Positions 1 to 58,702 of a stretch of 58,702 nt of DNA are shown here, piece by piece. This DNA comes from a virus (Duplodnaviria; Caudoviricetes): positions 1 through 58,702 of the IMG/VR virus record IMGVR_UViG_3300032243_001266; one strand, 5' to 3'. Each line of letters opens with the position of its first letter. The first letter of the stretch is position 1. The position numbers and the translations under genes were made by a program. The notes beneath the pieces were generated by a model. That model saw nothing but the letters and a program-made list of their open reading frames with translations, did not search any database and was not told where the DNA came from.

Positions 1-123
1 CGCGAAATGTAGGACGGCCGGCGCGCGCTGTATGTCTTACGAATATATGCGGGCCTGGTTATTACTTTGCGCATGGCAATAAATACGGCTAAGGTATATG
101 ATCAAGGGTATAGGGTATTAACA
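1..123 (+). repeat. left inverted terminal repeat (123 bp)
   Basis: 1-123 is the exact reverse complement of 58580-58702; first mismatch at 124/58579. Confidence 0.97.
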
Positions 124-140
124 AAACTTTATGAGGGCAT

Positions 141-191
141 TAACATTATTTTGGCTATTTGTCGCGTAATTTTATTACAGAAACAAAAACA
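141..191 (+). promoter_or_regulatory. repeated early promoter unit, copy 1
   Basis: TAACATT-N15-CGCGTAATTTTATTACAGAAACAAAAAC upstream of ORF 214; near-identical copy at 624-676; TAATTTTA resembles the Bacteroidota -7 box TAnnTTTG. Confidence 0.65.
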
Positions 192-213
192 CAAACCAAT
201 AAAATAAAAAGTC

Positions 214-426
214 ATGAGAAAAAGAACAGCAATAAAAAAACAGCCCGCGCCGGTAGTTACAGCAAGCGCAAACGGCTTGGAATTTCATGAAGCCCGCAAG
301 GTATCAACTAACGTAAGAATAAAACAGTTAGTAAATGAATTAGGTATCCCCGAAAACGTTTACAAATTACAGGCTGCTTTTCGCGAGTATGAGCGTCGCA
401 AAAAAAATGATTTTTTCAATCTTTAA
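214..426 (+). CDS. small basic early protein, function unknown
   Basis: 70-aa ORF, A-rich leader, directly behind repeated promoter unit. Confidence 0.7.
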   Translation: MRKRTAIKKQPAPVVTASANGLEFHEARKVSTNVRIKQLVNELGIPENVYKLQAAFREYERRKKNDFFNL

Positions 427-450
427 TTTTAACCCTTTAAATTTTAAGCC

Positions 451-615
451 ATGACAAACAAACAAAAAACGACGGCCGGCATTATTTGCTTATTAATTAC
501 AATTTTTTCGCCCGTATTTTTATTCGCGGACGCCGAAGGCTACGGGATCTTTTTATTCATTTGCTTTATCCTTTGCTTCGGTACTTTGGCCGATAACCTT
601 TTAACGAATGAATAA
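451..615 (+). CDS. small two-TM membrane protein (54 aa, not in ORF track)
   Basis: MTNKQKTTAGIICLLITIFSPVFLFADAEGYGIFLFICFILCFGTLADNLLTNE; two hydrophobic stretches, AAGCC-ATG start context. Confidence 0.65.
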   Translation: MTNKQKTTAGIICLLITIFSPVFLFADAEGYGIFLFICFILCFGTLADNLLTNE

Positions 616-623
616 CTAACCGA

Positions 624-676
624 TAACATTTTTTTATATTTTCAACGCGTAATTTTATCACAGAAACAAAAAACAA
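624..676 (+). promoter_or_regulatory. repeated early promoter unit, copy 2
   Basis: TAACATT-N15-CGCGTAATTTTATCACAGAAACAAAAAAC, same spacing as 141-191. Confidence 0.65.
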
Positions 677-698
677 TAACCTTCTAAAATTTCAAATC

Positions 699-872
699 AT
701 GCAAAACAATCTCAAAACCTTAGAAACTGCAAACGTTCAAAAACTTATTAACGAACAAAAACCACAAATTAACGCGCTTAAAAAAGCGCTCCAGGCAATA
801 AGTAAAACAATAAAAGCCCCGTTTGATACGTCCAAAGGTTATACGGTTCTACCTTCAAACCGTCCTTTGTAG
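699..872 (+). CDS. small early protein (57 aa, not in ORF track)
   Basis: MQNNLKTLETANVQKLINEQKPQINALKKALQAISKTIKAPFDTSKGYTVLPSNRPL, directly behind promoter copy 2. Confidence 0.6.
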   Translation: MQNNLKTLETANVQKLINEQKPQINALKKALQAISKTIKAPFDTSKGYTVLPSNRPL

Positions 873-926
873 TATTATTTTTTTATCCCTTTCGCGTAAT
901 TTATTCACCCTTAAAATTATTATTTT

Positions 927-2219
927 ATGTTAATCAAATTATCAGTATTAAAAAACAGTATAAAAGCCGGCTACTTGCCCGCTGATTTTATTGATCAATT
1001 AAGAAACGGCGAAGATATTACCCTAACGGCTACCGGGTATGCTGCTTTGTTATGCGATACAACCGAAATAACAAGCGGAGATGTTTACCATAGTGAACAA
1101 GATGAATGTTATTTTAATTATGATGAAATTAACGGCGAATATATTGACGCAGATAACGCCGTCTGCGCGTTCGGGCGCCGGGGTGATGAAGTTTGGACGC
1201 ATGAGCGCGAATGTGTTGAATATCGCGGCCAATATTACGTTACTGATTACCTAAATGATAACGATATAGTAATACTACATGATCAAGAACTTTGCCACAT
1301 AAACCGCGCGCAGTACGTTCAAAGTGAAGGCGAATATTACAGGGATGACGACGTTTATTTTTGGGAGTGCGACGGCGAATATCATTTAGAACCAGAAGAA
1401 GAAGAAGAAGAAGTACAGCCTCAAAAAAATACTCTTTGGGGCTACGATCAAGGCCCGCGCGAATTAAATTACACACATGAGGACGCGGGCGCCGGTACGG
1501 TTTTCGGCTTCGGCATTGAGATAGAAAAAAACGCGCTCCCTTCATTTGACTTTGAAAAAGAACAAATATACAGCAACACCGGCGCCGTACTTGAAAGGGA
1601 CGGGAGCGTTTCAAACGGCTTTGAACTTAAGACGCCGGTATATAATTTACTTAGCCCTAAAACTGAGGAAAGATTGAAGCCCTTAGCGGAATTTTGCAAT
1701 ATCAAAGAAATACAGGGCGCGGGCGGACATATTGGCTTCAGTATGGAAGGCAAAAATGATGAAGAACTTTTGAATCTTTGCCGCGGCTTTTTGCCCCTAA
1801 TTTATGCCATGTACAAAAACAGGCTAAAAAATCATTATTGCGAAGCGAAGCCAATTAATAAACTGATAAAAGAAAAACAAAAATTTCAATCGGTACGTTT
1901 GCGCGGGCATTACATTGAATTTCGTATTTTCTCCGCTGTAAAAAGTTACGAAACGGTAATTTTTCGCCTTAATTTATTTCGCTGCATTGCTAAAAATATC
2001 GGCGCCTCATTTTCGCGCGTGCTAATTATGGCAATTAATCCAGCCCACGAACTTAATAAACTGTTAACGGGCTTGAATGTGTATAATAACGCGGCGAATT
2101 TTGAGCGCTTAATAACGGACGCCATAGAATTTCACAAAACAATCGGGCGCGGGCGCCTATCTCAAAAAAAGATAGATAAAATAATTGAAACGGTCCGCAA
2201 AAATATGGCAACGACTTAA
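927..2219 (+). CDS. putative amidoligase (glutamine synthetase-like COOH-NH2 ligase) with acidic N-terminal region
   Basis: Motifs FGFGIEIE, DGSV...FELKTP, GAGGHIGFS, YIEFRIF; adjacent GATase-II gene. Confidence 0.8.
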   Translation: MLIKLSVLKNSIKAGYLPADFIDQLRNGEDITLTATGYAALLCDTTEITSGDVYHSEQDECYFNYDEINGEYIDADNAVCAFGRRGDEVWTHERECVEYRGQYYVTDYLNDNDIVILHDQELCHINRAQYVQSEGEYYRDDDVYFWECDGEYHLEPEEEEEEVQPQKNTLWGYDQGPRELNYTHEDAGAGTVFGFGIEIEKNALPSFDFEKEQIYSNTGAVLERDGSVSNGFELKTPVYNLLSPKTEERLKPLAEFCNIKEIQGAGGHIGFSMEGKNDEELLNLCRGFLPLIYAMYKNRLKNHYCEAKPINKLIKEKQKFQSVRLRGHYIEFRIFSAVKSYETVIFRLNLFRCIAKNIGASFSRVLIMAINPAHELNKLLTGLNVYNNAANFERLITDAIEFHKTIGRGRLSQKKIDKIIETVRKNMATT

Positions 2220-2295
2220 AGGGTGAAAGGGTAAAAAAACGGGGGGCGCGGCCCGTAATTAACGCGCTATTTTTTAACCTACAAAAAATTATTTT

Positions 2296-3081
2296 ATGTG
2301 TATAGCTATTTTAAACCGTAAAGGGACATTGACTAAAAAAACGTTTCGTAATTGTTGGGACGCGAATCCAGACGGCGCGGGCCTATGTTATTTTGACGGC
2401 GAAAGGGTGCAAATATTCAAGGAGCTAAAAAGTTACAAGTTGTTTTTTAATGAATATCAGATCGTCCGAAAGAAATTTCCTAACATTGATATCGCGATAC
2501 ATTTTCGTATTGCCACACATGGCCGCGTAAATTTGACAAATTGCCATCCCTTCCGTATTAATAAGCGGGCCGCATTCATTCATAACGGCATGATCAATAA
2601 TTTAGAACGCTCCGCTGATTTCTCCGATACCTACTTATTTAATGAAACTATCTTGAAAAAATTACCCGCAAATTTTACAGGCAATAACGCGCTATTGGAA
2701 CTTATTGGCGGCTATATTGGCGCGTCTAAATTAGTGATAATTAACGGCCCCGTTTCAGTTATTGTTAACGAAGATTTTGGGCATTGGGATAGTGGTAATT
2801 GGTACAGTAATAAAAGCTACCAAGATCGGCCCGTATATACGGCGGCGCCCAAAGTTACCACACATAAAAAAGCGGACGGCTATACATGGACGCCCGCAAA
2901 AAATTACTCCCTTTGGGGCGGCAGTGAATATTACGAAGATGATTTCATACCTGTTAACGATACCCGCGCGCGCGCAACTTGCGAATGTTGCCGCGAAGAG
3001 ACGGACGCGGCTTCGTATAATTATGAATATAATCTTTTTATGTGTAGCAAATGTCTTAAGGAGTGTGAAGGCTGGCAATAA
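2296..3081 (+). CDS. class II glutamine amidotransferase (Ntn hydrolase) with C-terminal Zn-ribbon
   Basis: N-terminal MC, NPDGAG, HFRIATHG, NCHPF, HNG, SDT; CECC...CSKC tail. Confidence 0.9.
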   Translation: MCIAILNRKGTLTKKTFRNCWDANPDGAGLCYFDGERVQIFKELKSYKLFFNEYQIVRKKFPNIDIAIHFRIATHGRVNLTNCHPFRINKRAAFIHNGMINNLERSADFSDTYLFNETILKKLPANFTGNNALLELIGGYIGASKLVIINGPVSVIVNEDFGHWDSGNWYSNKSYQDRPVYTAAPKVTTHKKADGYTWTPAKNYSLWGGSEYYEDDFIPVNDTRARATCECCREETDAASYNYEYNLFMCSKCLKECEGWQ

Positions 3082-3105
3082 TTAGCGCGTAAATTTCGCG
3101 AAAAT

Positions 3106-3137
3106 AGGGCGGCAATATGCCGGCCCTGTTTTTTTTT
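3106..3137 (+). terminator. intrinsic terminator after GATase gene
   Basis: AGGGCGGCA-ATA-TGCCGGCCCT hairpin (one bulge) followed by G and T9. Confidence 0.75.
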
Positions 3138-3500
3138 GCCCCTATGTCTGAAAATATACGGCGCGCCATATAGCGCCACAGCGGGCGCGAATATAGGCGC
3201 GAAAGTTATGAGCGGGCGCGAATATAGGCCCAAAAATAAACGGCTATAAACGGCCCTAAATTAAGCGGAGCGGAGCGGGCAAATATATCGGAGCGGGCGC
3301 TCCATGAAATAAACGGACGCCGGCAAAGATATCGGGCGCCTAATTTGCAGGACGCAAACAGCGGCCAAAAAAACGGACGCGAACGGACGCGGGCCGACTA
3401 TAAACGGGCGCAAATGAGCTGGCGCGGGCAAAGGTACGGACGGGGCGCCGGCCCTAAATTAACGGCGCAAACGTCGGGCGCCAGGCGCAAATTTCAAAAA
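3138..3500. repeat. GC-rich non-coding block with short direct repeats
   Basis: AGCGGGCGCGAATATAGGC at 3180-3198 and 3211-3229; CGGCCCTAAATTAA at 3251 and 3449; AACGGACGC at 3312, 3372, 3382. Confidence 0.85.
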
Positions 3501-3517
3501 CCTAAAACCAAAAGAAC

Positions 3518-3634
3518 ATGAAAACAAAAAAAGTAAATTTCATAATTGGGAGCGAAGGAATATGGCAAACAATCGGCGCGCGAATGTGGCTAACAAGCCT
3601 GGAACGGCAGGGCATACGGTTTTCGTGTAATTAG
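3518..3634 (+). CDS. small hypothetical protein (38 aa, not in ORF track)
   Basis: MKTKKVNFIIGSEGIWQTIGARMWLTSLERQGIRFSCN with A-rich leader. Confidence 0.45.
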   Translation: MKTKKVNFIIGSEGIWQTIGARMWLTSLERQGIRFSCN

Positions 3635-3681
3635 TTAAGATTAACAGGCAAAATAAAATTGTAAAACTAAAAAATGAAGAA

Positions 3682-3903
3682 ATGAGAACCCAAACTAATT
3701 TAATAAACTATTTCAACCGGTTCAATGTATTGGCGGAAATTACTTTGCTTCATGGGGGCGAATTGGGTATAAAGCTAAAAAATAAGGATCAGTATTTGTT
3801 AGCCCGTAGTATAGCGGAAAACCTGGGCTTCGCTGTCTTATTGCCTTACCAATATAACTATAACCGGAATACAATATTGGGGGCTGATTTCGCCGTCTAT
3901 TAA
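3682..3903 (+). CDS. hypothetical early protein
   Basis: 73-aa ORF in + strand early array. Confidence 0.6.
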   Translation: MRTQTNLINYFNRFNVLAEITLLHGGELGIKLKNKDQYLLARSIAENLGFAVLLPYQYNYNRNTILGADFAVY

Positions 3904-3975
3904 CATATAATTGGGTTATTGTTAACTTGAATTTATGAATTGAATGCGTATCTTTATGACTCAAAAATACTGAAC

Positions 3976-4254
3976 ATGAAAAACAAAATTAAGACATACA
4001 CAAAAACGCTTATTGATGATGATGGAATTGAACTACTTGTAACTTTCGATTATTATTGGGAAAATCAGAAGGAAGAAGGACATGGGGAACATGATTTATC
4101 GGGCTGGAACATTCAGCTAAACTATGTAGAATTGGTATTGGCTGGCGCTTCGGTTAAGTTCAATGGAGAGGCTAACATACTTAAATATCTTGCCCTGGGG
4201 CAATACTTAGCCATATTGGGTAAGATAGACATAAACGAAATAGAAGGTAAATAA
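3976..4254 (+). CDS. hypothetical early protein
   Basis: ORF track 3940-4254; ATG at 3976 (MKNKIK) has better start context. Confidence 0.65.
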   Translation: MKNKIKTYTKTLIDDDGIELLVTFDYYWENQKEEGHGEHDLSGWNIQLNYVELVLAGASVKFNGEANILKYLALGQYLAILGKIDINEIEGK

Positions 4255-4280
4255 TTTAATAACAATTAAAAACAAAAGCC

Positions 4281-4520
4281 ATGACAATTAAACAAATCAA
4301 TGAAATTGCAAAGTATGAAGGATGGGGGCTATTCGCTTGTCACGGAATTTCGGAGATTCGTGACGGCACTATTCTTATTCAAAAAGTAGATGATGAGGAG
4401 ATGGACTTTTTTTATGATGATGACAAGGCTTTTGATCATGTAAAGAAGTTAGCGGATATGGGCAGCCATCTTCATCAGTATTCGCTTGCAATAGTAGAAC
4501 ATTCAATATTAAAATTATAA
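4281..4520 (+). CDS. hypothetical early protein
   Basis: 79-aa ORF with AAAACAAAAGCC-ATG leader. Confidence 0.7.
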   Translation: MTIKQINEIAKYEGWGLFACHGISEIRDGTILIQKVDDEEMDFFYDDDKAFDHVKKLADMGSHLHQYSLAIVEHSILKL

Positions 4521-4524
4521 AACT

Positions 4525-4668
4525 ATGGAATCAATAAGAAAAGAAAAAATAGACAAATTAATGGAGTCAATTAGAAATTCATCAGCTACTCCAAATGAGA
4601 AAATTGATATTCTGGACGCGCTTTCGGAATTAATTATTTGGCTTTATATTGATTTTGATAAACATTAA
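4525..4668 (+). CDS. small hypothetical protein (47 aa, not in ORF track)
   Basis: MESIRKEKIDKLMESIRNSSATPNEKIDILDALSELIIWLYIDFDKH fills the gap between neighbours. Confidence 0.55.
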   Translation: MESIRKEKIDKLMESIRNSSATPNEKIDILDALSELIIWLYIDFDKH

Positions 4669-4679
4669 AAACTAAAAAC

Positions 4680-5192
4680 ATGAAAAAGTTAATTGTGGTT
4701 TTATTATTTCCTTTGTCATCATTTGCTCAAAGTGATTTTATAATTGAATTGTGTAATGAATCTGGTCCGGATTTACATTCTGGAGTAAGTAATAAACCTT
4801 TGTTGTGTGTAAAAGATAAAAATACCCTGTTTGGTCTTATGTTCTCTTTTCAAGAGCAACAAGATTCAGTTTGGTATAGAGGTATGATGGTAATGTCAAA
4901 AGGGATAGGCCAAAATATTGATAGTGCTAAATTGGAATTTACTTTTGAAGATGGGGAAATATTGAAACTTGAGGCATGGATGAACGTAGGATATTCAACT
5001 TGTTCTCACTTTGATTATTCCGGAGAGTATTTTGGCAAGTTACTTGAAAAGAAATTGATTAACATGAAATATACCAATTTAGGAACGGGAGAATATATTT
5101 CATATGATTTGAAAGAAAATCAGTTTAATTTTTTTGTAGAGGTCAAGGAGGCAATAGACAAAAAGAAAATATCTTGGAGAAACTGTCTTTAA
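4680..5192 (+). CDS. exported (Sec/SPI) protein, function unknown
   Basis: MKKLIVVLLFPLSSFA|Q signal peptide with Gln at +1. Confidence 0.75.
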   Translation: MKKLIVVLLFPLSSFAQSDFIIELCNESGPDLHSGVSNKPLLCVKDKNTLFGLMFSFQEQQDSVWYRGMMVMSKGIGQNIDSAKLEFTFEDGEILKLEAWMNVGYSTCSHFDYSGEYFGKLLEKKLINMKYTNLGTGEYISYDLKENQFNFFVEVKEAIDKKKISWRNCL

Positions 5193-5215
5193 TTAATAAT
5201 CTAAAAAACAAAAAC

Positions 5216-5452
5216 ATGAAAAAAGCAATTTTAGCATTGGCAGCAGCCTCAATAGCATTGGCCATGATGGCATCATGCAAAAAACAAACTTGTAATTGCG
5301 GAACAATTATGAGTGATAGAGTATCGGATTATTCAGTAGTAATTAGGAATGATTGTAGTAGTAATGAGAAACGCTTTTATCTTGAACCTGGAGATTGGAT
5401 GAGCGCCTATGTTGGTACTGAATATTGTATAACAAACGTAACAAGTTGGTAA
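5216..5452 (+). CDS. small Cys-rich lipoprotein
   Basis: MKKAILALAAASIALAMMAS|C lipobox; start refined from 5174 to ATG 5216. Confidence 0.75.
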   Translation: MKKAILALAAASIALAMMASCKKQTCNCGTIMSDRVSDYSVVIRNDCSSNEKRFYLEPGDWMSAYVGTEYCITNVTSW

Positions 5453-5470
5453 ACTTTAAAATTGAAAGTT

Positions 5471-5650
5471 ATGAATATAGTAGAGTTTGATATGGAAAAA
5501 TTGAGAGCTTTAAGAAAGGCATACAAAAAAGCATTTGAAGATGGCGAAAAAGTATTCAAATTTGAAGAACACGAATTGCTTACTGATTACGCTAAGTACT
5601 TAATTCAGCATCTTGATTATGAAATAAATGTTTTGAAAATGCGTAAATAA
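5471..5650 (+). CDS. hypothetical protein
   Basis: ORF track 5462-5650; first ATG at 5471. Confidence 0.6.
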   Translation: MNIVEFDMEKLRALRKAYKKAFEDGEKVFKFEEHELLTDYAKYLIQHLDYEINVLKMRK

Positions 5651-5653
5651 ATC

Positions 5654-5661
5654 TATATTTG
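5654..5661 (+). promoter_or_regulatory. Bacteroidota -7 promoter box
   Basis: TATATTTG just upstream of ORF 5669. Confidence 0.5.
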
Positions 5662-5668
5662 TATTGTT

Positions 5669-5878
5669 ATGGCAAAGAATCAAACTAATACATACGAAGC
5701 AGCCAAAAATACATTTGAATCACTTGGCTTTAGAGAAGATGCCGTTCTGCCTTTATTTCAGCCTAATGTAAGGATTTTCAGAAAGCACTTGAGCGAAATG
5801 ATTAGACGCCAAAAAAGTGGCAAGAAATTCGCCTCCAGAATTGTTTCAGAGGGCTTGAAAGTGATAAGAATTGAGTAA
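5669..5878 (+). CDS. small basic protein, possibly DNA-binding
   Basis: 69 aa, basic C-terminal half KKFASRIVSEGLKVIRIE. Confidence 0.6.
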   Translation: MAKNQTNTYEAAKNTFESLGFREDAVLPLFQPNVRIFRKHLSEMIRRQKSGKKFASRIVSEGLKVIRIE

Positions 5879-6052
5879 TTAATCTGATTTTTTCCGATAA
5901 AGCATGAATTTTTCGGCAAGTTTCATGCACTTTTTCCTTTGAATAGTGTGGGTTTTGTCAAGTTTTATGTACGAAAAAATGTACATAATGCGGAATCTTA
6001 TATTTTGTAAACCAAAATCTTTTAATTATGTATAACGGAATAATGTTTATAG

Positions 6053-6085
6053 TTTGCTTTGTAATGGTAATAGTTCTTACTTTTG
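6053..6085 (+). promoter_or_regulatory. Bacteroidota housekeeping-type promoter
   Basis: TTTG(6053-6056)-N21-TACTTTTG(6078-6085). Confidence 0.6.
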
Positions 6086-6089
6086 TTGA

Positions 6090-6161
6090 GCAAAAATATT
6101 TAAAATAGGTTTTTTGTACGGCTTTGTTTTTTGTTATGGGGCTATTCTTAGCCCCATTTTT
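6090..6161 (+). ncRNA. candidate ~70-nt U-rich small RNA
   Basis: No ORF between the promoter at 6053-6085 and the hairpin terminator at 6136-6161. Confidence 0.4.
6136..6161 (+). terminator. intrinsic terminator
   Basis: ATGGGGCTA-TTCT-TAGCCCCAT followed by TTTT. Confidence 0.7.
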
Positions 6162-6164
6162 AAT

Positions 6165-6197
6165 AAAAAAAATCCCCAGTATAGAAATACCGGGGGA
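6165..6197 (-). terminator. intrinsic terminator ending the late (- strand) region
   Basis: On - strand CCCCGGTAT-TTCT-ATACTGGGG followed by A and T8. Confidence 0.8.
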
Positions 6198-6232
6198 GTC
6201 GTAACCATTAAACTAAAACATGAAAATGTTTA

Positions 6233-6511
6233 TTAAGAATCATCTTCATCGGACTCAAATATCTCATCATATAATTCATTAAGGCATTCATCAATTATTT
6301 TTAATGACTTTCTTCTTATCCTCTTTATTCTTTTCTCATCTTCTTTGTTCATAAGAGCCACATCTATATCATCAACAGCAGACAATGAAAAATAAGCGCC
6401 TTGAATATAATCAAGTCTGGTAGTATATTCTATTTCAAATTCCTGCTCAACAGTTTCTACCTTTTCATCTTCAACCTTTGGATCTTCGTTTGGTATTAAA
6501 TTTTCATCCAT
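6233..6511 (-). CDS. acidic hypothetical protein
   Basis: 92-aa ORF packed against the phosphoesterase gene. Confidence 0.7.
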   Translation of the reverse strand: MDENLIPNEDPKVEDEKVETVEQEFEIEYTTRLDYIQGAYFSLSAVDDIDVALMNKEDEKRIKRIRRKSLKIIDECLNELYDEIFESDEDDS

Positions 6512-6513
6512 GA

Positions 6514-7503
6514 TTATAAAGTTTTTCCTTTATAAATTCTTTTGTTGTGAAAGTTATAATCGCTTCCGTTTTCATCCAATTCTACATAGGCATAGCCATG
6601 ATTCCATTTATTTAGTGGCATATAGGCCGGATTCAACTCGGACAAACAACCAATTGACCATGTAGTTGTAATCTTGCCATTCATATCAGATTCGGTATGT
6701 TCACTTGTCGCATGATTGTGGCCTTGAAATGCCGATACTTTACCTCTCAAATATAAACCTCTTGCAACGTTCACAGGAGCTGAAATTCCGCCGATATATT
6801 CGTGACCATGTATTCCATTCAAATCATTCAACTTCATGTACTGATTAGCCTCTATCATCGTTATATCATATTCCCTGGCCTTGATGATATTAGCAAATTC
6901 AAAATCTTCAATTCCGGCAATCTCATGGGCTTTTTGAAAAAGGAAATGCTGATACCTTAGTTCGTGATTCCCAAGTTTAAAGTAAATTTTACAATTCAGA
7001 ATGGTTTTTAACTTATCAAAAAATAATTTCAAGCTATCCAATTCGTATTTGAAATCTCTCTTTTTAGGATCTTTAATAAATCTACTTAATTGGTGGCAAT
7101 CAATGGTATCTCCATTAAGCAACAAAGCATCAACCTTTTCTTTTTTTAAACTGGTTAATGCTTCTGTTAATGCGTCAAGTGAATGATAAGGCAAATGAAC
7201 ATCTGATAATATGCCTACTTTTTTGTGACGAGGAAATACAAAAGGAGTATAAATTGTTTCTTCTGACTCTGGTAACTTATAAGGATTGTATGGCCTTGGT
7301 TCTTCTCTTATGTATTTTTGATTAGCTAATACATCTTTGCCCTTGGTTTCATTTTTACCTTCAATTCGTCTTAGTATGGATCTTGCATTTTCAACATCTT
7401 TGAATTGAAGCTTGTGTTCTTTAAAAATAATTCTTGCCAACTTCAATGATGGCATATCAGGAAACTTGTCTCGGTAGCTTCTTGCGATTTCAGATTTGTT
7501 CAT
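6514..7503 (-). CDS. calcineurin-like metallophosphoesterase
   Basis: SDVH, NGDTID, GNHE, HGHE, GHNH motifs; start refined to ATG 7503 (MNKSEI). Confidence 0.88.
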   Translation of the reverse strand: MNKSEIARSYRDKFPDMPSLKLARIIFKEHKLQFKDVENARSILRRIEGKNETKGKDVLANQKYIREEPRPYNPYKLPESEETIYTPFVFPRHKKVGILSDVHLPYHSLDALTEALTSLKKEKVDALLLNGDTIDCHQLSRFIKDPKKRDFKYELDSLKLFFDKLKTILNCKIYFKLGNHELRYQHFLFQKAHEIAGIEDFEFANIIKAREYDITMIEANQYMKLNDLNGIHGHEYIGGISAPVNVARGLYLRGKVSAFQGHNHATSEHTESDMNGKITTTWSIGCLSELNPAYMPLNKWNHGYAYVELDENGSDYNFHNKRIYKGKTL

Positions 7504-7930
7504 AATATAGTTTTGACTCTTCATTACGCCTTCGCCTAAGACCTTTCTCAAATGGACTACCTTTGTTTACCCAACGAAGAAGTTCATCTTTTATTGTGGG
7601 GTCATTAGGATTTATAAAAGCTTTTTTATATAAAGTAGATTTTAATAAATTACCACATCCTACATTATAAACAAAACTCATTAGCGCGTCAAATTGATTC
7701 TGATTCAATTTCAATTTAGCCAAACAATATTCTTTATTCTTTAATTCCCAAAACATTAATTTCTCGGCATCTTCATGGGTTATTTTCTCGCCCATTTTTA
7801 TTTTTTTGCCATCTGACCACATAGTGCTTCCAAATCCAATTGTGACTTTTCCAGCCGGGCATATATATGCGTCTGTGAAAAAGCCTTCAAACTTTTTTAT
7901 TAAATTAACTGCTCTTTGTGATGTTGTCAT
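7490..7930 (-). CDS. endolysin, GH24 phage lysozyme
   Basis: IKKFEG-x-YICPAGKVTIGFGST, NQNQFDALMSFVYNVG, GLRRRRNEE. Confidence 0.95.
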   Translation of the reverse strand: MTTSQRAVNLIKKFEGFFTDAYICPAGKVTIGFGSTMWSDGKKIKMGEKITHEDAEKLMFWELKNKEYCLAKLKLNQNQFDALMSFVYNVGCGNLLKSTLYKKAFINPNDPTIKDELLRWVNKGSPFEKGLRRRRNEESKLYYEQI

Positions 7931-8481
7931 TTTCTAATTATATGTAGAATTAAAGACAATCCAAATAAAAGTAATAAAATTATTACCCACCACAATAAAT
8001 TGATTCGTTTTACGTTGGCGGATTCATAGTCACTTCTCAGCCCATTTATTTCAAAATCTTTTGATTGAATTAAAGCCGTATCTTTTACTTTATACGTTTT
8101 ATAAACAATCGGAATCTGCCTATTTAATGTTTCCTGGAGTCCTTCAATAAATTTATAAGAATCTTTAAGTTCGTTTTTTAATTTAGATATTTTAGTAAGA
8201 CAATCATTGTCTCTTAAATAAACCGTATCATTTAATACTTTATCAATAGTATCTTTTTTGATGATTATTTTTTTATTCAATGAATCAATGATAACTTGCC
8301 ATCTTACTTTTTCTATTGTATCAATTCGTATAATTGAAGAATCGCATGGATAGTTTTTGGCGACAAACTTTGTAACAACTTCTGGATGTTTTAGCTGAGC
8401 CTCAATTAAATCACGCTGGGCTTGTCTTTCAGAATAACAACCAAAAACCAAAAATAAAAATACAAACAATAAATATTTCAT
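7927..8481 (-). CDS. putative unimolecular spanin
   Basis: N-terminal lipobox (FLVFG|C) plus C-terminal TM (LLWWVIILLLLFGLSLIL); lies between holin and endolysin. Confidence 0.7.
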   Translation of the reverse strand: MKYLLFVFLFLVFGCYSERQAQRDLIEAQLKHPEVVTKFVAKNYPCDSSIIRIDTIEKVRWQVIIDSLNKKIIIKKDTIDKVLNDTVYLRDNDCLTKISKLKNELKDSYKFIEGLQETLNRQIPIVYKTYKVKDTALIQSKDFEINGLRSDYESANVKRINLLWWVIILLLLFGLSLILHIIRK

Positions 8482-14469: not shown

Positions 14470-17400
14470 TTAATCTTCTGGTTCTTGTGAAGAATTATTG
14501 TTTAGAATATATTGAGCAGCTGCGTTGACTCCCGCGTCCTCTGAATCATTTGAAGTTGCCTGCGTAGTATTGTTACCTTGTGGCTTCTCTTTTTCTTCTG
14601 GCGGAGGTCCTTGGAATCCATTGCCTTCAAGTTGAAGCATTTGATCTGGGGTAAATTCAGAAAGCTTAAGTTCTTTGGTATAAAGTCTTTTATTTTTTTG
14701 TTTAGACAATGTTTCCATTGCTTTCATTTTTCTTTCTTTACCAAACAATTCAGCTTGAGCATATTCTGGATGAACTTGAATAAATTGAGAATATCCTGCT
14801 TCGCGAGCTATTTGATATAATTGATTACAAGCTTCTGCTTGTTGCTTCAAATTAAGTTGTGTAAATTTTTTGGCACTTTTTTTAACCTTTATTTGATTAA
14901 AATCTTCAGCATAAGCATCAATTATTTTTTTATCTTGTTCGTTTGCCGCTTCCCTCAAATCATTTCTATCTGATGATTTAGCAACTTGGAAATCTTTTAT
15001 TTTATATTTTTTAGCCAAATCATTTAAATCAGTTTTTATTTTTTCAAAATATTGTTCGGCATCCTTTCCTTTATATCTTGGGTCATTGGCTACATCATCG
15101 CCAAACTTATACTCAGCTACATAAAATGGCACAACGTCATAAATAAATGGAGATATTAATTTTTTTCTATTTTGACCAATTAATATATCTAAATCTCTTT
15201 TTTCTTGTGTTTTTAATTCAACGTCTTTGCCATTTACTTTTAATTTATTATCCTCTGGCATTGGGAAAAATCTATCGTCTTGTGTTTGTTGGTATTTGTC
15301 AAACAAAATTGCTCCAAATTTATCACCTACTCCTCCTTCAAATCCCAAAAGTGTATTGACCATGCCCATCGCACTTACATCTTTTTTTATAGGCTCTCCC
15401 CACATTGAAACTCTTTGAGGAGGTCCTCCAGCAAAATATCTAAGTACTGCATTTCTTTGTTTCTGATTATTCAATATTTTATCATAAGCATTATCCGCAT
15501 TATTATTAGCTTCATAAGGAAGCATAGCTTTACTTATTGCTGCATAAGTTCCTCCTGTCATTATATTCCCAAATCCATTTGCAACAGATGTGAAGTAATT
15601 ACTTCCTTTATCTTTAGACATAAAAGCATTTATTACACTTGTACCATTATCAATGGCCAATGTATTCAATGCTCCCATTGCTGATTCTTGAAAATCATCT
15701 AATAAAGGAAAATCTCCAGGTTCTTCTCCTTTTGATTTTCTTTCTTTTTCTCTTTCTACATTTTTTGTTTCTATATCCATTGTAGAACCAAGAGGACCAA
15801 ACCAGCCAAGATCAACCCAAAAATCACTTCCGCCAAGCATTTTGCCTAAGTTTAATTGATTCATTTTGGAATAAAATCTTTCACCTTGCATTACTCTTCT
15901 TTTTTCATCAGCAGAAAGACTTGAATGTACCAATCCATTTTGTTGTAAATAAGGCGCTGCAATATATCTAAATCCATATCCAACGGCTGCGGTAGCTGCT
16001 GAATCTTTTGCTTTTTCAGTATATTCTCTTGCTTTTGCCTTGTCACCTTTTCTTGCGGCTTGAAAAGCCATTCTTGAGTAATTGGCAGATTCAGCCAATG
16101 ATAATTCTGGGAATGTCAATTTTAAACCAGTCCACATTACATTGCTATAAATTTTTGTAAATGGAAATGTTGTTGTCATTACAACATCAGCAGCAAGTCC
16201 GCCTTTTTCTTTAGCACCCTTTCTTAGTCCACCAAGCATTTGGGTAAGCATATTTTCTTGTTCCATTACAGCTCTACTTCCTGCTTCATTAATTCTATTT
16301 TCTACTTCTTTCGCTTTAGCTTCTGCATCTTTGGCTTCTACTCCATCGGCAATAAATTTCTTATATGCCATCTTAAATGGAGACTCTATAAATGCTTGTA
16401 TTTGATTTTCTTCTATAAAACCTAATTCTTGAAATGCTATTTGAGCAGCTTTAGCCCATTGAGCACCAGAACGAGCTGGCATATCACCAAAAGCCAATGC
16501 TCTTAAAATAAAATCACTTTGTCTTGCTACCCATGACTTTCTAACCCACGCATCAACAACTTCTTTTGTAGTCATAAATTTCTCACCCTTCTTCCAAAGC
16601 TGATAATCACGAAGCGCTTTACCAGGAGATAATGAACTTTGATAACTTGTTGTTCCAAAGAAATCTCCGCCTGGATGCCCTGTTTTAAACTTTAAAAAAC
16701 CCTTACGCACTCCGCCGCCTGTTCCAGAAAAATAATATTTTTGAGCAATGGCTAAATTAGTTGTTGGTTTGTAAACGCCAGTCAACCCTAATTTATTTGT
16801 AATTTTTGATCCTCCATAAAGAGCAAGTTCAGCAGCTTGTTTTACTGATGATGTACTAAATCTTATTGCTTGATATGCCAAGTTTTGGATAGGGTTTTTG
16901 ACCAAAGTAAAAATAGACATCAACCCACCTTTCCACATACTTGCAAATGTTCCTCCAAGGTCCGCTTCTCTATGAAGCATATTCAAAAGCTCTACTTCGG
17001 CTTTTACTGATTCTTCTTTTGCTTTTCTTAATTTATCTATATTCTCTCTTGTTGGGTCTTTTACCATCTCATCTTCTACCTTCGCTACATTGTTTATTAT
17101 ATCGGTAAGTTTTTCAATTTTTGTAACCATGTCTGGTGACAAATCTCTGAATCCCATAACATCGGCAACAATTTTTCTAAATTCTTCTTTCTGCAATCCA
17201 CCAGATTCGGCTATCTTTTTTATACTTCTCCTTACTATTTCTCTTAATTTTTCTTTATCAATTCCTTTGGCTCTTCTCTGAAATTCATCTAAGAATTGCT
17301 GTGCTTTCTTTTTCTGCCATTCTGGAGATTGTTTTTTTGCTTCATCATATTCGGCTTTTACTTTATCTAATTCGTCTTTTGCGGCTTGCTCTTGTTCATT

Positions 17401-20400
17401 TAAAGTTCTTTTTTCTTTATATGCTTCTGCACTAAAATCATTTTCCCTTTTTCTTCTTTGAAGCTCGTCTTTTAATTTATTATATCTTTTAATTCTATTG
17501 ACTGATTCGTTTGCTTTTTTCTTTTCTTTAGACCATATTTCTGATTCTTCTTTTATTTGTTGTTTTAAATCTTTTTCTTCATCTGTTAATTTTCTTTTTT
17601 CAACAGGATTGGTTGTTTTTTCTTGCCTATTTTTTACTCTGTCTAATTCTGCTTTTAATTTAGAAATATTATCTTCAATCTTCCACTTCAATCTTTCATT
17701 TTCAATTTTTTCTCTTAATTCAATTTCTTTGTCAGAATATTCTCTCTTATTTGTTTCGCTTGGCTCTTTTTCTTTTCTTTGTTTTAATCTGTCAAGTTCT
17801 TTTTCTAAATCATCTATTCTTTTCTTCGTTGCCATATTTTCTCTCAAATCCTTTTCGGCTTTTTCAACTTCAGATTTTAAATTTTCAATTTCCGGCGTGT
17901 CTTTTTTTACTTCTCTTTTTTTACCTTCTGGCAATTTGCCAGATTCAAGAATATTCAATTTTTCTTTTAAATCGGAAATCTTTTTCATTTGTCTGTTAAT
18001 TTCCGATTCCAAAGCTTTATAGTCTTTTGAATTTCTTCTTGATTGATCTATTTCTTCATCCCATTTTTTTTGTTCTTCTTCAATTTTAGAAATTAAATCT
18101 TGTTCTTCTTTTGTATATTCTATTTTTTGAGGTTCTTTTTTTTCTTTTTGTTCTTTTTCTCTTCTGAATCTTACTCTGTCTAATTCCGCCTCTAAATTTT
18201 CTATTCTTTCTTGAATCTTTTTTTCGTTTGGAGTAATTTCACCAGATGCAATCCTTGCCTCTTTTACAAGTTTTTGATTTTCTCTTCTAAGCTCATCTCT
18301 TTCTTTTATTAATTTCTGAACTTCTTCAACATTGCCAAATTTTTCTACTCTTTGTTCTGATGGAACTCCGCCCTTTTTTATTTTTTCTTGATAATCTTTT
18401 ATTTGATTTTCTAAATCATTTATTCTTTCTTTTAATTGATCTTCTCTTGATTTGTCCTTTTTACCTTCATCTGCAACTCTTGTTAATGCTGATTCGTATT
18501 CTTTTCTAAATTTTTCCTTATCCCAATTATCTCCTACTTTATCTGATATTTGGTCTATTGCTCTTTGTACTATATCAACAACTCTATCTCCTCCTTTTAC
18601 CGCTAATCTCATTCCTTCTATTACCGGATTCAATACAGATAATGGAATAACAAATCCATATGTGTTATTTGGATTTATTTTTAACTTGTCAAAAAAGTCG
18701 TCAATCTTCTTATCTCTTTTTTTCCTATCAGCCGCTCTTTCTTGCTTTCTTCTTTCTTCAACCTTGGCTTCAAACAATTCTGCTCCACCTTCGGTTTTCA
18801 TCAATTCATCATAAAGCTCATCAATATTTTTAGTTTTCATCCACTCCTCAAATCTTTCCTTAGTAAATTTATTTTCTGCAATTATAAATCCGAGTGGACT
18901 TGTCTTGTAGTAATGTCCTGCATAAGCGGTGAATTGCCCCGCTCCTGTAAGTTGTGCAGAATATTTATCAACCAAATCAGCCCATTGCATAGCAGCATCT
19001 AATTTTTCTGCATCCGTTTTTGCATTTTTCTCTCTATCTGCTGCTCTATCAATTAATTCAGCGTATATAGCAGACCTTACGCTTGGGTGCATATCATCAC
19101 CTTTAGCTATTTCCAATGCTTGATTTTCACCAACTTGATCAACAATACCTACTGCAACTTCTCTTGCTTCAGCATTAGATGCCGTTTTGTAATTAAGATT
19201 ATCGGCAAGTTTTTGTTTTAGATTTGATGGAATGCTTTCGGCTTCCATTATGTTTCTTTTTAATCCAGATTGTCTTTCTGCGTTAGTTCCAGAATATGAT
19301 GGAACATTTGGCGTTTCCGTTGGTGGCTTATTACCTCCTGCTTCAGTAGTCTTTTCCCCAGATAATTGCTTGTAAAATTGCTCAAAACCTTTTTCTACTA
19401 TTTCTCTATTTTCTTCACCTCTTATTGAAACTAATTCGCTTACTGATTCTTTTAAAGCTTCATAGAAATCAACACCCTTATCCAATAATTTACCCATTTT
19501 TACAACGGCGTCTGCAAGCTTTTTTTGTAAATCTTCGGCGGACATTCCAGACTTTTTAACATCTTTCAAAAAATCTGGAGTTTTCAAAAAGTCTGGCAAT
19601 TCAACACCGGCTATTTTTTCAGCTAACTTTCTTGCCTTTTCTTCAAATTTTCCTACTTTTTCTGTTGAAGGCGGAGTTTCTTCTGGCTTTACTTCTGCTT
19701 GGGTTGTTGTTTCTGCGGTTGGCTCTGTTGCTTTTTCCGGGCCACCGACATTTTCCCCAGGAATACCGCTAATTGATTCTTCTGCTTGTCTGTTAACTTT
19801 TTCAATTGTTTCATTTAATATTTTTTCTGCTTTTGGTGATAATGTAAGTAATTCTGGAACAAATCCATATTTATATTCATTTTCTAATTTATTCCAATCA
19901 ATAGAACCATCTTCATTTTGAAATTTTTCCAATATAGAAAGCATTTCTGCTTGAACATCTTCTGGCAAGTTTTCTACTTCTTGCTTTAATTTTTGAGCTG
20001 CATTTTCTCCCATTGAGCTTACTTCATCTGGAGAAAAGTTTTTTTCAAATTCAGCTTCAAGTTCTAAGTGAGGCCTCATTATGTCCTCAATCATTGTTTT
20101 TGGACTACTATGAGAAAGCATTACATCCTCAATGGCATTTCTAAAATCTTGGTCGCTATATCTATCTTGAAAATATTCTGATTGGCTTTCCCATAATTGA
20201 TGAGCAAGTTCTTTTATGCTTGGAGCGCTGTTGTCTTGCATATTTAATCGCGCCTTATGCTCTCCCGTAATTTTTTTCTTGCCTAATACGGCTTCAGCCC
20301 CCGCTTTTCTTCCAAATAATTCTCTTAATGCGCTTGGATTTATTTTGCCTCCTGATATAAAATATTGAAGAACAACAGTAAGCGGGTCCTCTGCTTCTAT

Positions 20401-23400
20401 TGCCAATGCTCTTTTCTTTACATCCTTCTCTACCTTTTCTTCTTTTTGCTCCATTTTTTCTACTTCTCCAAACGGAAGTTCTTCTTCAATAGGTTTTTCC
20501 GCTGTGGGTAAAGTTTCTGGTTTTGCTTCTGCTGGTTGTTCTTTAGATAGTAGGGATTCTACTGCTTTTAACTTATTTCTTGGTCTTTCATAATCTGTTT
20601 TTTCAACTACCTTAATTCCATGTTTTTCTGCTGCTTTTTTAATATCTTTAAGCGATACATGGTATGGAGATGTTACAGGCTCTTGGTCTAATACTTTTTT
20701 ATCTACTTCAATTTGTTTTATATATTTATTCAAATCTTTTATCCCATCATAACCTCCAATCTTTAATTCTTCCTCTCCAACAAAAGTTCCTAAATTCTCG
20801 CTACCTTCTTTTATTTTTATTCCGTCTTTTCTTAATTTTTGTAAGTCTAATTCAATAACTACACCCTTATCTGAAAAAGACAATGGCTTGTTACCTTCCC
20901 CATACTGCTGCACAGTAGATAATTCAGGATGCCCAAGTCCTTTATTTGTTGTAGTGGAAACACCGCTTACTTCTCCTTCCCCATATAAAGAATTTTCATC
21001 AAGAATATTAAGCAATGAAGTTGGGTCTGTAAAGTGGTATGTTGTAGGTGCATTTATATCTCCTTTAAGCCCATAAGAATTTGGTTGATTATCTATCAAA
21101 TCCATTTCTTCTTTTTGCTTTTTACCAAGTTTTCTGCCTTCTGAATCTAAGTTTTTAGAATAAACATAAGCATCCCCCATAGATAACTCACCTTTAGCTG
21201 CTTTATCGTAAAGTTCATTTTGTTCAGCCTTGTGTTTTTCTCTTAAGGCATATCTTAAATCAATCAAATCACTTGGGGCTAATTCCCCTCCATTTTTTAA
21301 ATGGTTTACATACTCGTCTGTATTATTTTTATTAATTATTACATCTCTTAATGCAGTAGGTGTTTGTTCTACCGCCTCATTCTCTTTTGCAATATCTCCC
21401 CCTACACCAACACTACCTGCTTCTGGTTTAGCTTCTGTCTTGGTAACTTCTACTTGTTTTAATAAAGGTGATATTAGCTTATCGTACTTGGCATAAACTT
21501 CATCAAATGCTTTTATATCTTCTGGGTTAGTAAGTTTGCTTCTATCTACTTTGCCATCTACTCTGTATTGTTCTGCGTTTGGTATTCTTGAATCAAGCTC
21601 TGCTTGTTCTTCTGCTCTTAGCCTATCTATTTCTTTTTGATTGGTTGTTTCTGTCTTTGTTTCTAATGGCTTTTCTTCTACAACCTCTGCCTCTATTGTT
21701 TTTGTTGGCAATTCAGCAAGCTTAACTTCAACTACTGCCTCATCACCTATTGGATTTTCTTTTGCATATTTTTTTGCATCTTCTATCAAAGCATCAAATT
21801 GCTTTTCTACCGCTTCTATTTGTAAATCTTTAGGGTCTGCTCCTTGTTCTAATTGTGCTTGAAGGTCATCTATTGTTTTTTCTTTGAGATTCTCAAAATA
21901 TCTTACTGGGTCTGCTTTTATTTGTTGCAGTTGTATTTGAGCTTGAGCCAAATCTTGGGATGCTTGTGAATCTTGTGGATTTTCTTGTAATCTTCTTTGA
22001 GCATCAGCTACTGTATTCTCGTAGTTCTTTATTGATAAATCTACTGATTCGGTAATAACAGGCGCTTCTGATCCAATTTTATTCTTTAATTCATTGACTA
22101 CATCTTGAGGAGTAGTATTTTCATCAACCTCAATACCATTATCCTCTGCCACTTTTTGTACTTCTGGGGTCATTTCTTGAGGAATATCTGTTGATTGTAC
22201 TAAATCAGACGCATCTTTGGTAATAATTGCTGATTCTGATTTCTGATTAGTATATAAGTCAGATATATCTTTATTGATTCCCTCAATTAATTTTTGTATG
22301 CCTGCTATTTGCGAATCTATTCCTTCGTGAAATGCTGGATCTTCAGTTTTCTTTTTCTCCATCAAATCATTCAACTCTTTTGTCAATCCATCCCTTCTTA
22401 TCAAATTAGTTGCAATCTGTATTCTTTTTGGTATGTTGATTACAGATAAAGGTATTTTATAATTGTATGTTGAATACTCGTCTATTATTTTATTTAACGT
22501 TTGTCTTTGGTCTGGGGTTAAACTTTGGTTTGCTTTATTTTTGATATCCTCCCTAAGTTTATTTAATGCTTCTGGAGTATCAGCTTGCATCACCTTTGTT
22601 TTCAATTCTGATTGAACCTTATTAAATGACGCAGGACCAGCACCGGTTAAAACTCCCATCAAAGCTCCTTGCCTTGCTTCTCCAAGCATTTCGCCCCATC
22701 CTTCTCCATAAGCTTTTGCATTAAATATATCATTGAATTTAGTAGGCAATTTAAAACTTGGTGTTTCAAAAACATTTCTGCCAACACTATCATTCAATAG
22801 CTTTTTTAATAACTTATCATTTGCAGACATGGCTAATCCAAAAGTAGCTCCTGTACCAGCATGACTTGCCAATGTAAGAGCTTTAGTTTTTATGCTATTA
22901 AGTTCTGATGTAGCCAACTTCTCAAAAGTCAAAGGAGTAAGAAGTATGTTATTTGCTTCGGCTTTTTTTATTGTATTTATTGTAGTATTTACAGCCAATT
23001 TATTACTTGCATTACCAAATATTTTATCTATGCCCATTTTTGCTATAAGGCCTTGCATGATACCATTGTTATATGCAAAAACTAATTTTTGATATTCGGG
23101 CAAATTCTTTCCTTCTGGTGTGCTATTTATAGAATCCATTCCGTTTGCATATCCTTGAGCCATAAATCCGACTGGCACACCGGACACATTAACTAAAGCG
23201 GCTGGTAGCATATTTGCAACAGCTCCCGCTGCGCTTAAAATATAATCATCAGCAAATCTTTTTTCATCACCATGCAAATTAAATGTCAATCCTTCCCTTG
23301 CATCATTTTTTAGCCAATTGGAAATTGTTCTGTCTGTTTTTTGGTCAGAAAAAATATTGATAATTCCAGAAGGCAAATCTTCGCCAACCACGCTATAAAG

Positions 23401-58408: not shown

Positions 58409-58579
58409 ATACAATACATTATTACAAACCAAAAATATTTTTGTTAATTTTTTTAAACAGAAATAATTACGCTGATTTTTAGGCGATTCTAAGGCTTATT
58501 TTTTGCCAAGTGCATATACCCTACCTCTTATGGCGAGAAATGCCATTTATCCCCCTCCTACTCCCCTCTCCCAAACATA

Positions 58580-58702
58580 TGTTAATACCCTATACCCTTG
58601 ATCATATACCTTAGCCGTATTTATTGCCATGCGCAAAGTAATAACCAGGCCCGCATATATTCGTAAGACATACAGCGCGCGCCGGCCGTCCTACATTTCG
58701 CG
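58580..58702 (-). repeat. right inverted terminal repeat (123 bp)
   Basis: exact reverse complement of 1-123. Confidence 0.97.

Follow-up and report, generated by a model that had tools for sequence, protein, structure and literature searches.

Why should the first 3.6 kb of a phage genome be written in a different sequence dialect from the rest of it? The question arises for the 58,702-nucleotide (nt) virus record IMGVR_UViG_3300032243_001266 (Duplodnaviria; Caudoviricetes), which was analyzed over its whole length and is referred to here as the window or, in comparisons with related genomes, as G000. IMG/VR places this record in the class "inverted terminal repeats". A preliminary description, made from the letters alone, had stated that the left ~3.6 kb is CpG- and CGCG-rich and had attributed this to selection on the DNA that enters the cell first, through avoidance of restriction or modification motifs or through protein coating. 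We arrive at a reading in which selection acts on the DNA according to its position, in the segment that is expressed first and probably enters first, and we give it a probability of about 0.5; motif avoidance is not supported as the cause of the CpG richness.

The anomaly is strong and sharply bounded. Positions 1-3640, the block in what follows, have a GC content of 0.412, an observed/expected ratio (o/e) for CpG of 1.77 and 51 CGCG words (14.0/kb), whereas the other 55,062 nt have a GC content of 0.342, a CpG o/e of 0.72 and 19 CGCG words (0.35/kb). CGCG is thus 40-fold enriched per kb. Among 3640-nt windows clear of the block, CpG o/e averages 0.72 (standard deviation, sd, 0.12) and reaches 0.95 at most. 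Two-segment likelihood analysis of the first 12 kb places the change point at 3630, and CpG counts drop from 14 per 100 nt at 3400-3500 to 5 at 3500-3600. The codons, words and extent listed in the preliminary description were right, as was the fading out of the bias, which is in fact sharper than claimed.

The dinucleotide that differs is CG, with 1.76 in the block and 0.71 in the rest. At the same time, CA/TG (0.76 vs 1.12), AG/CT (0.62 vs 0.96) and GA/TC (0.66 vs 0.96) are lowered. All eight steps that mix G/C with A/T are depleted in the block while GG/CC is unchanged, and because of this the block can be said to segregate G/C from A/T, with alternating CG/GC favoured within the G/C runs. 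The density of G/C-A/T junctions is 0.337 against 0.485 expected, compared with 0.427 against 0.450 in other windows. CA and TG are lowered symmetrically (0.75 and 0.78) and are merely reduced; the main signal consists of CGCG/GCGC enrichment plus segregation. In shuffles that preserve dinucleotides, 35.4 CGCG (sd 5.0) and 34.6 GCGC (sd 4.9) are obtained, and none of 1000 shuffles reaches the 51 copies observed for each. The hexamers CGCGGC (8 in the block, 0 in the rest) and CGCGCG (8 vs 1) are enriched even beyond CGCG. The excess of CGCG over dinucleotide expectation therefore points to selection at the level of words.

The bias is a property of the DNA itself and covers the repeat copy at the end, the spacers, five open reading frames (ORFs) and a non-coding array. 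This follows because non-coding DNA is as biased as the genes, and CA is depleted about as strongly as TG. For non-coding DNA, CpG o/e is 1.83 in the block (1,009 nt) and 0.97 elsewhere (3,464 nt), the ORFs of the block range from 1.66 to 2.27, and CpG across codon boundaries has an o/e of 1.56 in the block compared with 1.03 in the rest. When the 872 codons of the block are set against the 16,885 elsewhere, Arg is encoded by CGC in 0.51 vs 0.05 and by AGA in 0.12 vs 0.68 of cases, and Gly GGC (0.69 vs 0.20), Ala GCG (0.38 vs 0.10) and Pro CCC (0.43 vs 0.07) are likewise preferred. Amino-acid usage is similar despite these differences. The earlier statement that the bias extends over repeat, spacers and unrelated ORFs, and so is not that of one transferred gene, is borne out and can be extended to the array. 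The block is neither curved DNA nor structured RNA: the AA/TT and CG bands of helical periodicity are ordinary, the SS band is 21 (mean 12, maximum 27 in other windows), and nothing beyond composition was found when the array was examined as a structured RNA (z -0.48 and -0.92).

Is the bias inherited or maintained? The relatives available for comparison are G001 (62.6 kb, large terminase TerL 84% identical), G002 (65.8 kb), L062 (89% DNA identity) and, more distantly, G009 (65.3 kb) and G010, both with 31% TerL identity to the window. G003-G005 do not extend into the block region, and a scan with anchor genes for further left ends yielded only G001, G002 and one fragment. The block is kept in relatives at 89% (L062) and ~67% DNA identity. 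G001 aligns collinearly with the window over the full length and carries a CpG/CGCG-rich last 3.6 kb, although its block proteins are only 52-54% identical to those of G000. Two neighbouring genes of the block, for a ligase-like and an amidotransferase-like protein (the enzyme pair), illustrate this conservation with turnover: just 32 of the 95 G000 CpGs in the former and 19 of the 51 in the latter are at positions common to G000 and G001, and yet both copies are CpG-rich. Over 2.3 kb, G000 has 154 CpGs and L062 149. CpG changes between these two in the ligase-like gene, polarized with G001, comprise eight gains, two losses and 19 ambiguous cases. Gains exceeding losses are the opposite of what is expected for a foreign block decaying towards the CpG o/e of 0.72, and from these alignments we infer that the bias is maintained and not inherited from a donor.

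Individual words have also been considered. GGCGCG occurs 12 times on the plus and twice on the minus strand in window 1-3640 and 13:1 in G001 (reversed 1-3700); for GGGCGC the counts are 13:1 and 4:0. In the other 55 kb of the window they are 0:3 and 2:2, respectively. The polarity exceeds that in synonymous-codon and dinucleotide shuffles in both G000 and G001, for words picked post hoc. Most of the sites lack positional conservation. As a mechanism, Chi-like polar words were rejected on the grounds of the post hoc choice, the missing extended consensus and a contribution from strand asymmetry.

The position of the bias is linked to the head of the early operon. All five related records covering this region have the highest CpG of the whole record there, even when the genes differ. 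The six highest-CpG 1-kb windows are found beside the left repeat in G000 (201-1901), G001 (1401-1901) and G002 (201-701). G002 lacks the enzyme pair and has a different gene at this place; its top windows nevertheless reach 1.22-1.39 compared with a record median of 0.49 and a 95th percentile of 0.78. A terminal bias with non-homologous genes, which the preliminary description had proposed to look for, therefore does exist. In G009 (median 0.80) the eight highest windows all fall at 41.4-42.1 kb, with up to 20 CGCG/kb against a median of 1, and those of G010 are likewise at the head of the early operon. The zones of both genomes are 2-4 kb upstream of their enzyme pair; by eye, they start just past non-coding DNA with words resembling the window termini. 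No CpG-rich block is present in G003-G005, which do not include the region.

Beyond this clade the picture is mixed. In G006, which has no TerL relative, the eight highest CpG windows all fall on the enzyme pair, which lies within 3 kb of the contig end. Its signature differs from that of the window block in GpC (1.03 vs 1.73), S/W junction ratio (0.92 vs 0.69) and Arg and Gly codons; the two share the CpG excess only, which counts against one donor dialect. In G008, from another family and with direct terminal repeats, the CpG maximum lies elsewhere, at 3.2-3.8 kb, and the module region ranks second. Two of the five loci L037-L041 from the amidotransferase scan have a CpG peak ~1.1 kb upstream of the match. 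In 19 of 20 loci the top CpG window lies no further from the gene than -6/+5 kb; this was discarded as evidence, as the span covers most of each locus.

Restriction sites follow a course of their own. TCGA is nearly gone genome-wide in G000, G001, G002, G004 and G005 (0-1 per record vs 28-187 expected), and CTAG is nearly absent from G000 and absent from G004. The block shares in this: it contains no TCGA against 9.7 (G000), 7.4 (G001) and 6.2 (L062) expected, with at most 1 in 1000 dinucleotide shuffles reaching zero, and no CTAG in G000 against 5.0 expected. Both sites are thus purged genome-wide and not specifically in the block. Weaker depletions of the bulk genome (GATC, CATG and GTAC) are not seen in the block, which is evidence that block and bulk are subject to different regimes. 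GATC is also absent from G004 and GGCC from G003. Mixed 4-bp palindromes number 51 in the block and 48 (sd 8) in 52 other windows, distinct 6-bp palindromes 26 compared with 18 (sd 2.4). CGCG is missing altogether from G002, G003 (49.1 kb) and the cultured Elemovirus NC_055853 (59.8 kb), where 17-65 copies are expected, and in the rest of G000 it occurs 19 times instead of 46. Its complete absence from the three records suggests that hosts of such phages have restriction directed at CGCG, while G000 and G001 crowd the word into their leading block. Avoidance of restriction motifs, which the preliminary description had offered as a cause, is not supported as the source of the CpG richness: the number of palindromes is not reduced, and the enriched word, CGCG, is one that three relatives lack entirely. 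The purging of TCGA and CTAG, and perhaps of AGCT, is real and runs beside the CpG enrichment. AGCT has no copy in the first 2.3 kb (1-2303) of G000 and of L062, compared with 195 sites (3.5/kb) in the rest of G000. This gap, picked post hoc among 16 palindromes and not found in G001, is only suggestive of the pattern that T5/BF23 and murciaviruses show in their first-entering DNA (PMC10644984, PMC12455610).

According to the reading we favour, the block would be the head of the left early operon beside the terminal inverted repeat of a Bacteroidota-type podovirus, laid out as repeat copy, three small genes, the amidoligase-like/amidotransferase-like pair, a terminator and a non-coding array of GC words of 560 nt. 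Continuing selection on the DNA would keep it CpG-dense, chiefly by CGCG/GCGC words in an A/T-rich background, and would be tied to position, i.e., to the first-expressed and probably first-entering kb, rather than to donor ancestry or to codon optimization as a by-product. Host restriction sites (TCGA, CTAG and, in the first 2.3 kb, perhaps AGCT) would be purged from the same DNA in parallel. Selection, and not mutation bias, probably maintains the CpG bias, and the block end would be the one that enters the cell first. As to function, our guess is that CG/GC words are a positive feature of leading DNA, for example by binding a protecting or handling factor or through a physical property that impedes nucleases dependent on unwinding, up to the time when the early enzymes have acted.

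Several observations weigh against this. The polarized count comprises as few as ten informative sites. L062 and one X1 contig (see below) extend beyond the repeat, such that the block could sit 3.3 kb from the end in some molecules. The genes at the right end, by the other repeat copy, carry the same GCGTAAT word as those on the left and are not CpG-rich; being early and terminal is therefore insufficient by itself. Elemovirus, a cultured distant relative (TerL ~26%), has no CpG block. In five of 19 loci of the ligase-like family CpG is at least 1.3-fold over background, and the pair is CpG-elevated in G006, which also fits a gene-linked cause. Finally, regional mutation bias may maintain the CpG content of the block.

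In principle, the block could also have been joined to the phage by an assembler or brought in from elsewhere. This is a metagenome assembly bounded by a repeat of the kind at which assemblers break. Still, a chimera or contaminating fragment can practically be set aside: a Logan contig of 9,962 nt, built by another assembler from the same reads (run X1, the probable source), spans 94-8000 and beyond with 0 differences and flat depth across the junction, diverged copies of the block and of the DNA beyond it are present in runs from three further studies, G001 is collinear, and the purging of TCGA and CTAG is shared by both sides. The block is neither an artefact nor a recent import. DNA of positions 1-3700 finds no match in 50,697 phage records, and none of 20 resident contigs with the ligase-like family shares the block dialect. 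A recently transferred compositional island was rejected for the lack of a donor match, here or in the module of the other family, for the presence of the block in G001, L062 and diverged contigs, and for the preponderance of CpG gains. None of the three findings named beforehand as fatal to the preliminary description, i.e., a donor of like composition, absence from relatives or a coverage break, was made. Another possibility would be a mobile early-gene cassette, in which the pair and its neighbours travel between phages and bring their composition from, or are repeatedly replaced out of, a CpG-rich pool. Several facts speak for it. The pair is adjacent in seven of seven distant loci and is CpG-high elsewhere, gene 1 having 1.55-1.86 in L048/L049 against a background of 0.43-0.51, and L043/G006 having 1.4-1.7 against 1.0. 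The GC content of the module (0.41-0.44) lies below that of the G006 genome (0.475) and yet above that of the G000 genome, as if converging, and the block proteins of G000 and G001 have diverged far more than their terminases (84%). We nonetheless consider the cassette unlikely, because the 20 resident loci lack the dialect and no cellular homologue was found, the G006 block shares the CpG excess alone, gains of CpG are not fewer than losses within the clade, and the block has been purged of TCGA and CTAG together with the backbone. Moreover, the CpG maximum of G002, G009 and G010 is at this same position where the pair is missing or lies downstream, and the gene is not elevated in 14 of 19 loci.

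Two further explanations dispense with ancestry. If the first genes had been recoded to host-optimal codons for rapid expression, as in the leading regions of conjugative plasmids, the block should resemble the capsid-type gene at 36016-37449 (minus strand), whose strongly selected codon set is unlike that of the bulk genome. This gene serves as an indirect proxy for host-optimal codons. Some resemblance exists, since both avoid AGA (0.12 in the block) and C-ending two-fold codons make up 0.38 in the block and 0.60 in the capsid gene as opposed to 0.24 in the rest; the block is also GC-richer and not palindrome-poor, like the plasmid regions (PMC13478746). However, the capsid gene prefers CGT, GGT, GCT, ACT, ATC, AAC and TTC and virtually excludes TTA (0.00), ATA (0.04), GCG (0.05), ACG (0.02) and TCG (0.00), whereas the block favours GGC, GCG, ACG and CCC and retains TTA (0.35) and ATA (0.34). 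Relative synonymous codon usage of the block correlates at 0.19 with the capsid gene and at 0.24 with the rest. Given this mismatch with the host-optimal codons, non-coding DNA that is as CpG-rich as the genes, and the absence of tRNA genes, translational adaptation appears improbable. We are equally sceptical about regional mutation bias, by which DNA near this end would be replicated, repaired or recombined differently and drift towards CpG. It would account for an effect that is linked to position and includes non-coding DNA, and an inverted repeat is nearby, accompanied in G002 by a phage recombination module. On the other hand, no mutational process known to us would generate CpG and CGCG/GCGC in particular. 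In addition, the bias spares the arm at the other copy of the repeat, it stops abruptly at a boundary marked by a sequence element, and CGCG exceeds the dinucleotide expectation.

Known leading regions offer partial parallels. In T5 and BF23, the first-step-transfer DNA is terminal, carries takeover or anti-defence genes with their own promoters and ends in a long non-coding stretch rich in repeats; restriction sites count only if they lie within this DNA, and they are purged there (PMC10644984). That only the first-entering DNA is exposed to restriction thus has precedent (PMC12455610, PMC10644984). The window similarly has a terminal early operon and a 560-nt repeat array at the boundary, the latter no more than a resemblance, and lacks TCGA and CTAG, with AGCT missing from the first 2.3 kb. 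It differs in having no long direct terminal repeat. Two-step entry is a feature of T5/BF23, and the families are unrelated. Positive enrichment of CpG/CGCG, the defining oddity of the window, finds no mention in the accessible part of PMC10644984. Autographiviridae such as the murciaviruses have a variable leading region with anti-defence functions, in which the location of restriction-modification motifs sets sensitivity (PMC12455610); the feature there is the absence of one Type I motif, while in the window it is recoding at the dinucleotide level. Leading regions of conjugative plasmids (Shaw et al. 2026, PMC13478746) are GC-rich and show a raised codon adaptation index, without consistent depletion of palindromes. 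The block shares with them the higher GC content, the undiminished palindromes and a codon usage of its own. Plasmid regions, however, move towards the host optimum (PMC13478746), which the block does not, and in the block non-coding DNA shares the bias. LUZ24-like Pseudomonas podoviruses possess adjacent early genes for a ligase and a class-II amidotransferase (PMC3890496, PMC3517423), resembling the pair in the window. The 430-amino-acid (aa) protein of the window differs in lacking a PF12224 match and having an additional N-terminal beta-repeat domain, and composition is unreported in the accessible parts of those two papers.

According to recent work, the contest with host defences is decided in the part of a phage or plasmid that enters the cell first, and what has been described in leading DNA so far is the absence of sites and codon adaptation only. 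A limited literature search returned no description of a CpG-enriched leading segment in phages. The enrichment in the block concerns one dinucleotide, is strong and sharply bounded, recurs at the same place in relatives with different genes, and runs counter to both host-optimal codons and the avoidance of CGCG by relatives. It is tempting to extend this, tentatively, to several phage families that would keep their first-expressed, first-entering kb CpG-dense (CGCG/GCGC, with GGCGCG/GGGCGC polarized to one strand) as a signal read by a phage or host factor. If true, the signal might act as a coat that protects the DNA, as a brake on entry, or as a nuclease decoy or shield, amounting to a "leading-DNA code" at the dinucleotide level. 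Such a factor would add a new layer to phage-host interaction, and the signal would provide a simple signature by which to recognize, in genomes of uncultured phages, which end leads and which genes are the earliest.

The preliminary description spoke of an inverted terminal repeat. The 123-nt inverted repeat is indeed found at both contig ends; its terminal position is doubtful. In G002, the left 103 nt recur inverted 2,596 nt inside the right end (reversed 1-103 and 63090-63192). The segment beyond (reversed 63193-65788) has outward-reading genes that resemble, by eye, those for a single-strand annealing protein, a YqaJ-type exonuclease and a RusA-type resolvase, and these genes have no counterpart in G000, G001 and G003-G005. 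A 3,316-nt contig of X1 carries 3,193 nt outside the repeat at approximately single-copy depth, and both the left arm and the reversed right arm leave from its inner side. In L062, other DNA lies outside the repeat and is followed by the left arm. On the other hand, short contigs of two other studies (X4, X5) end exactly at window position 1, and the G002 contig stops where its own repeat copy does, at the outer edge. All of this evidence on the ends consists of contigs; runs X3 and X6-X9, in which the shares were small, do not enter into any of the statements made here. The simplest model would have the order repeat, left arm, right arm, inverted repeat and an extra ~3 kb and would put the block at a physical end; there may instead be a second isomer, or the assembler may have chosen arbitrarily. 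Accordingly, a "complete genome with ITRs" (inverted terminal repeats) should not be taken at face value: the element is probably an inverted repeat at which assemblies break, and the window is probably ~3.2 kb short beyond one copy.

The features of the block and of the opposite end are compiled in Table 1. The DNA immediately inside the right repeat copy is AT-rich and CpG-poor (CpG o/e 0.25-1.15 in the last 5 kb).

Table 1 Features of the CpG-rich block and of the right end of the window
Feature	Position	Strand	Remarks
Inverted repeat, left copy	1..123		123 nt; CpG o/e 1.71; begins CGCG
GCGTAATTT word	164..172	+	~50 nt upstream of ORF 214-426
Small ORF, 70 aa	214..426	+	CpG o/e 1.66; counterparts by eye in G002 (reversed 1211-1417) and L062
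Small hydrophobic ORF, 54 aa	451..615	+	CpG o/e 2.27
GCGTAATTT repeats	647-655, 894-902	+	Upstream of the following ORFs
Small ORF, 57 aa	699..872	+	CpG o/e 1.67
430-aa protein	927..2219	+	CpG o/e 1.76; N-terminal beta-repeat and C-terminal glutamine-synthetase/carboxylate-amine-ligase fold (amidoligase-like)
261-aa class-II (Ntn, N-terminal Cys) glutamine-amidotransferase-like protein	2296..3081	+	CpG o/e 1.69; Cys-rich tail
Non-coding array	3082..3640		~560 nt; GC 0.51; CpG o/e 1.71
Terminator-like hairpin and T run	3110..3140	+	3' of the amidotransferase-like gene
GCGTAATTT inward copy at right end	58464-58472	-	Single copy
Inverted repeat, right copy	58580..58702		Reverse complement 100% identical to 1-123

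The GCGTAATTT word has five matches in the window, four of which are at the places listed; 10 of 100 shuffles give five or more, and the count alone is not significant. The GCGTAAT word points inward beside both repeat copies in G000, in G002 (reversed 128, plus strand, and 63010, minus strand) and in G001 (reversed 384, plus, and 62585, minus), and it stands ahead of the first ORFs. GCGTAAT/GCGTAATTT may be an early-promoter element distinct from TAnnTTTG. The array consists of short GC words (GGGCGC, CGGGCG, AACGGACGC and similar) that alternate with A/T words, includes short direct repeats and ends where the compositional change point lies.

The 430-aa protein, for which 80 homologues were collected, is modelled by AlphaFold with a mean predicted local distance difference test (pLDDT) score of 90.6, and Foldseek aligns the model with GmaS (gamma-glutamyl-methylamide synthetase), glutamine synthetases and YbdK (probability 0.97-0.99, E ~1e-4). 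Template-modelling (TM) scores are low (0.22-0.29) because of the extra N-terminal domain, and the model agrees with a predicted carboxylate-amine ligase fold of the glutamine-synthetase type. The protein has no Pfam match at E<=0.01, and none of 32 family members matches PF12224 (Amidoligase_2) even at E<=1. Among viral contigs, an alignment-based scan recovered 20 loci with this family, while a single-protein scan gave no confirmed locus; cellular homologues were not found. The 261-aa protein matches PF13230 (GATase_4) with E 1.4e-8 and 34.4 bits, above the cut-off of 23. The two genes are neighbours also in G001, and the product of the gene after the ligase-like gene begins with MCI in the window, in G001 and in the seven distant loci (MCIAILN in six, MCIIIHK in L061).

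Profile scans identify the phage as tailed, with a large terminase, portal, capsid-type and other virion proteins and a primase-polymerase/helicase. Its closest cultured relatives by TerL (26-28% identity) are podoviruses of Flavobacteriia (Flavobacterium, Cellulophaga, Tenacibaculum and Maribacter), and its host is therefore probably a member of the Bacteroidota. A protein of the glycosyltransferase region was dropped as a host clue, its single weak match to Lachnospiraceae being uninformative. In T7, DNA entry is driven by transcription. The window phage is not a T7 relative, and no phage RNA polymerase was detected among the window proteins scanned. Neither a protein-primed family-B DNA polymerase nor a terminal protein was found in the 26 of 65 ORFs scanned, and positions 1-6000 gave no Rfam match. 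Sigma-70-type promoters (24 vs 22.8 expected) are uninformative, terminator-like sites number 11 compared with 6.2 expected, and TANNTTTG boxes 101 compared with 92.9, the block not being depleted of them. A 3,655-aa ORF on the minus strand (14470-25437) shows a weak peptidase-like match near the N-terminus and nothing else; Elemovirus encodes a structural protein of 3,694 aa in the matching position.

A CGCG hot spot at 4140-4470 of L063 (MW202828), a GenBank podovirus, was rejected as a further case of the block, as it is an ACGCG-type microsatellite beside iterons, and the enzyme pair of that phage is not CpG-rich. The stretch 3990-4470 comprises five ATCGACATA iterons followed by a 300-nt microsatellite-like tract of ACGCG/ACACGCG (18 CGCG per 500 nt) and looks like an origin-type region.

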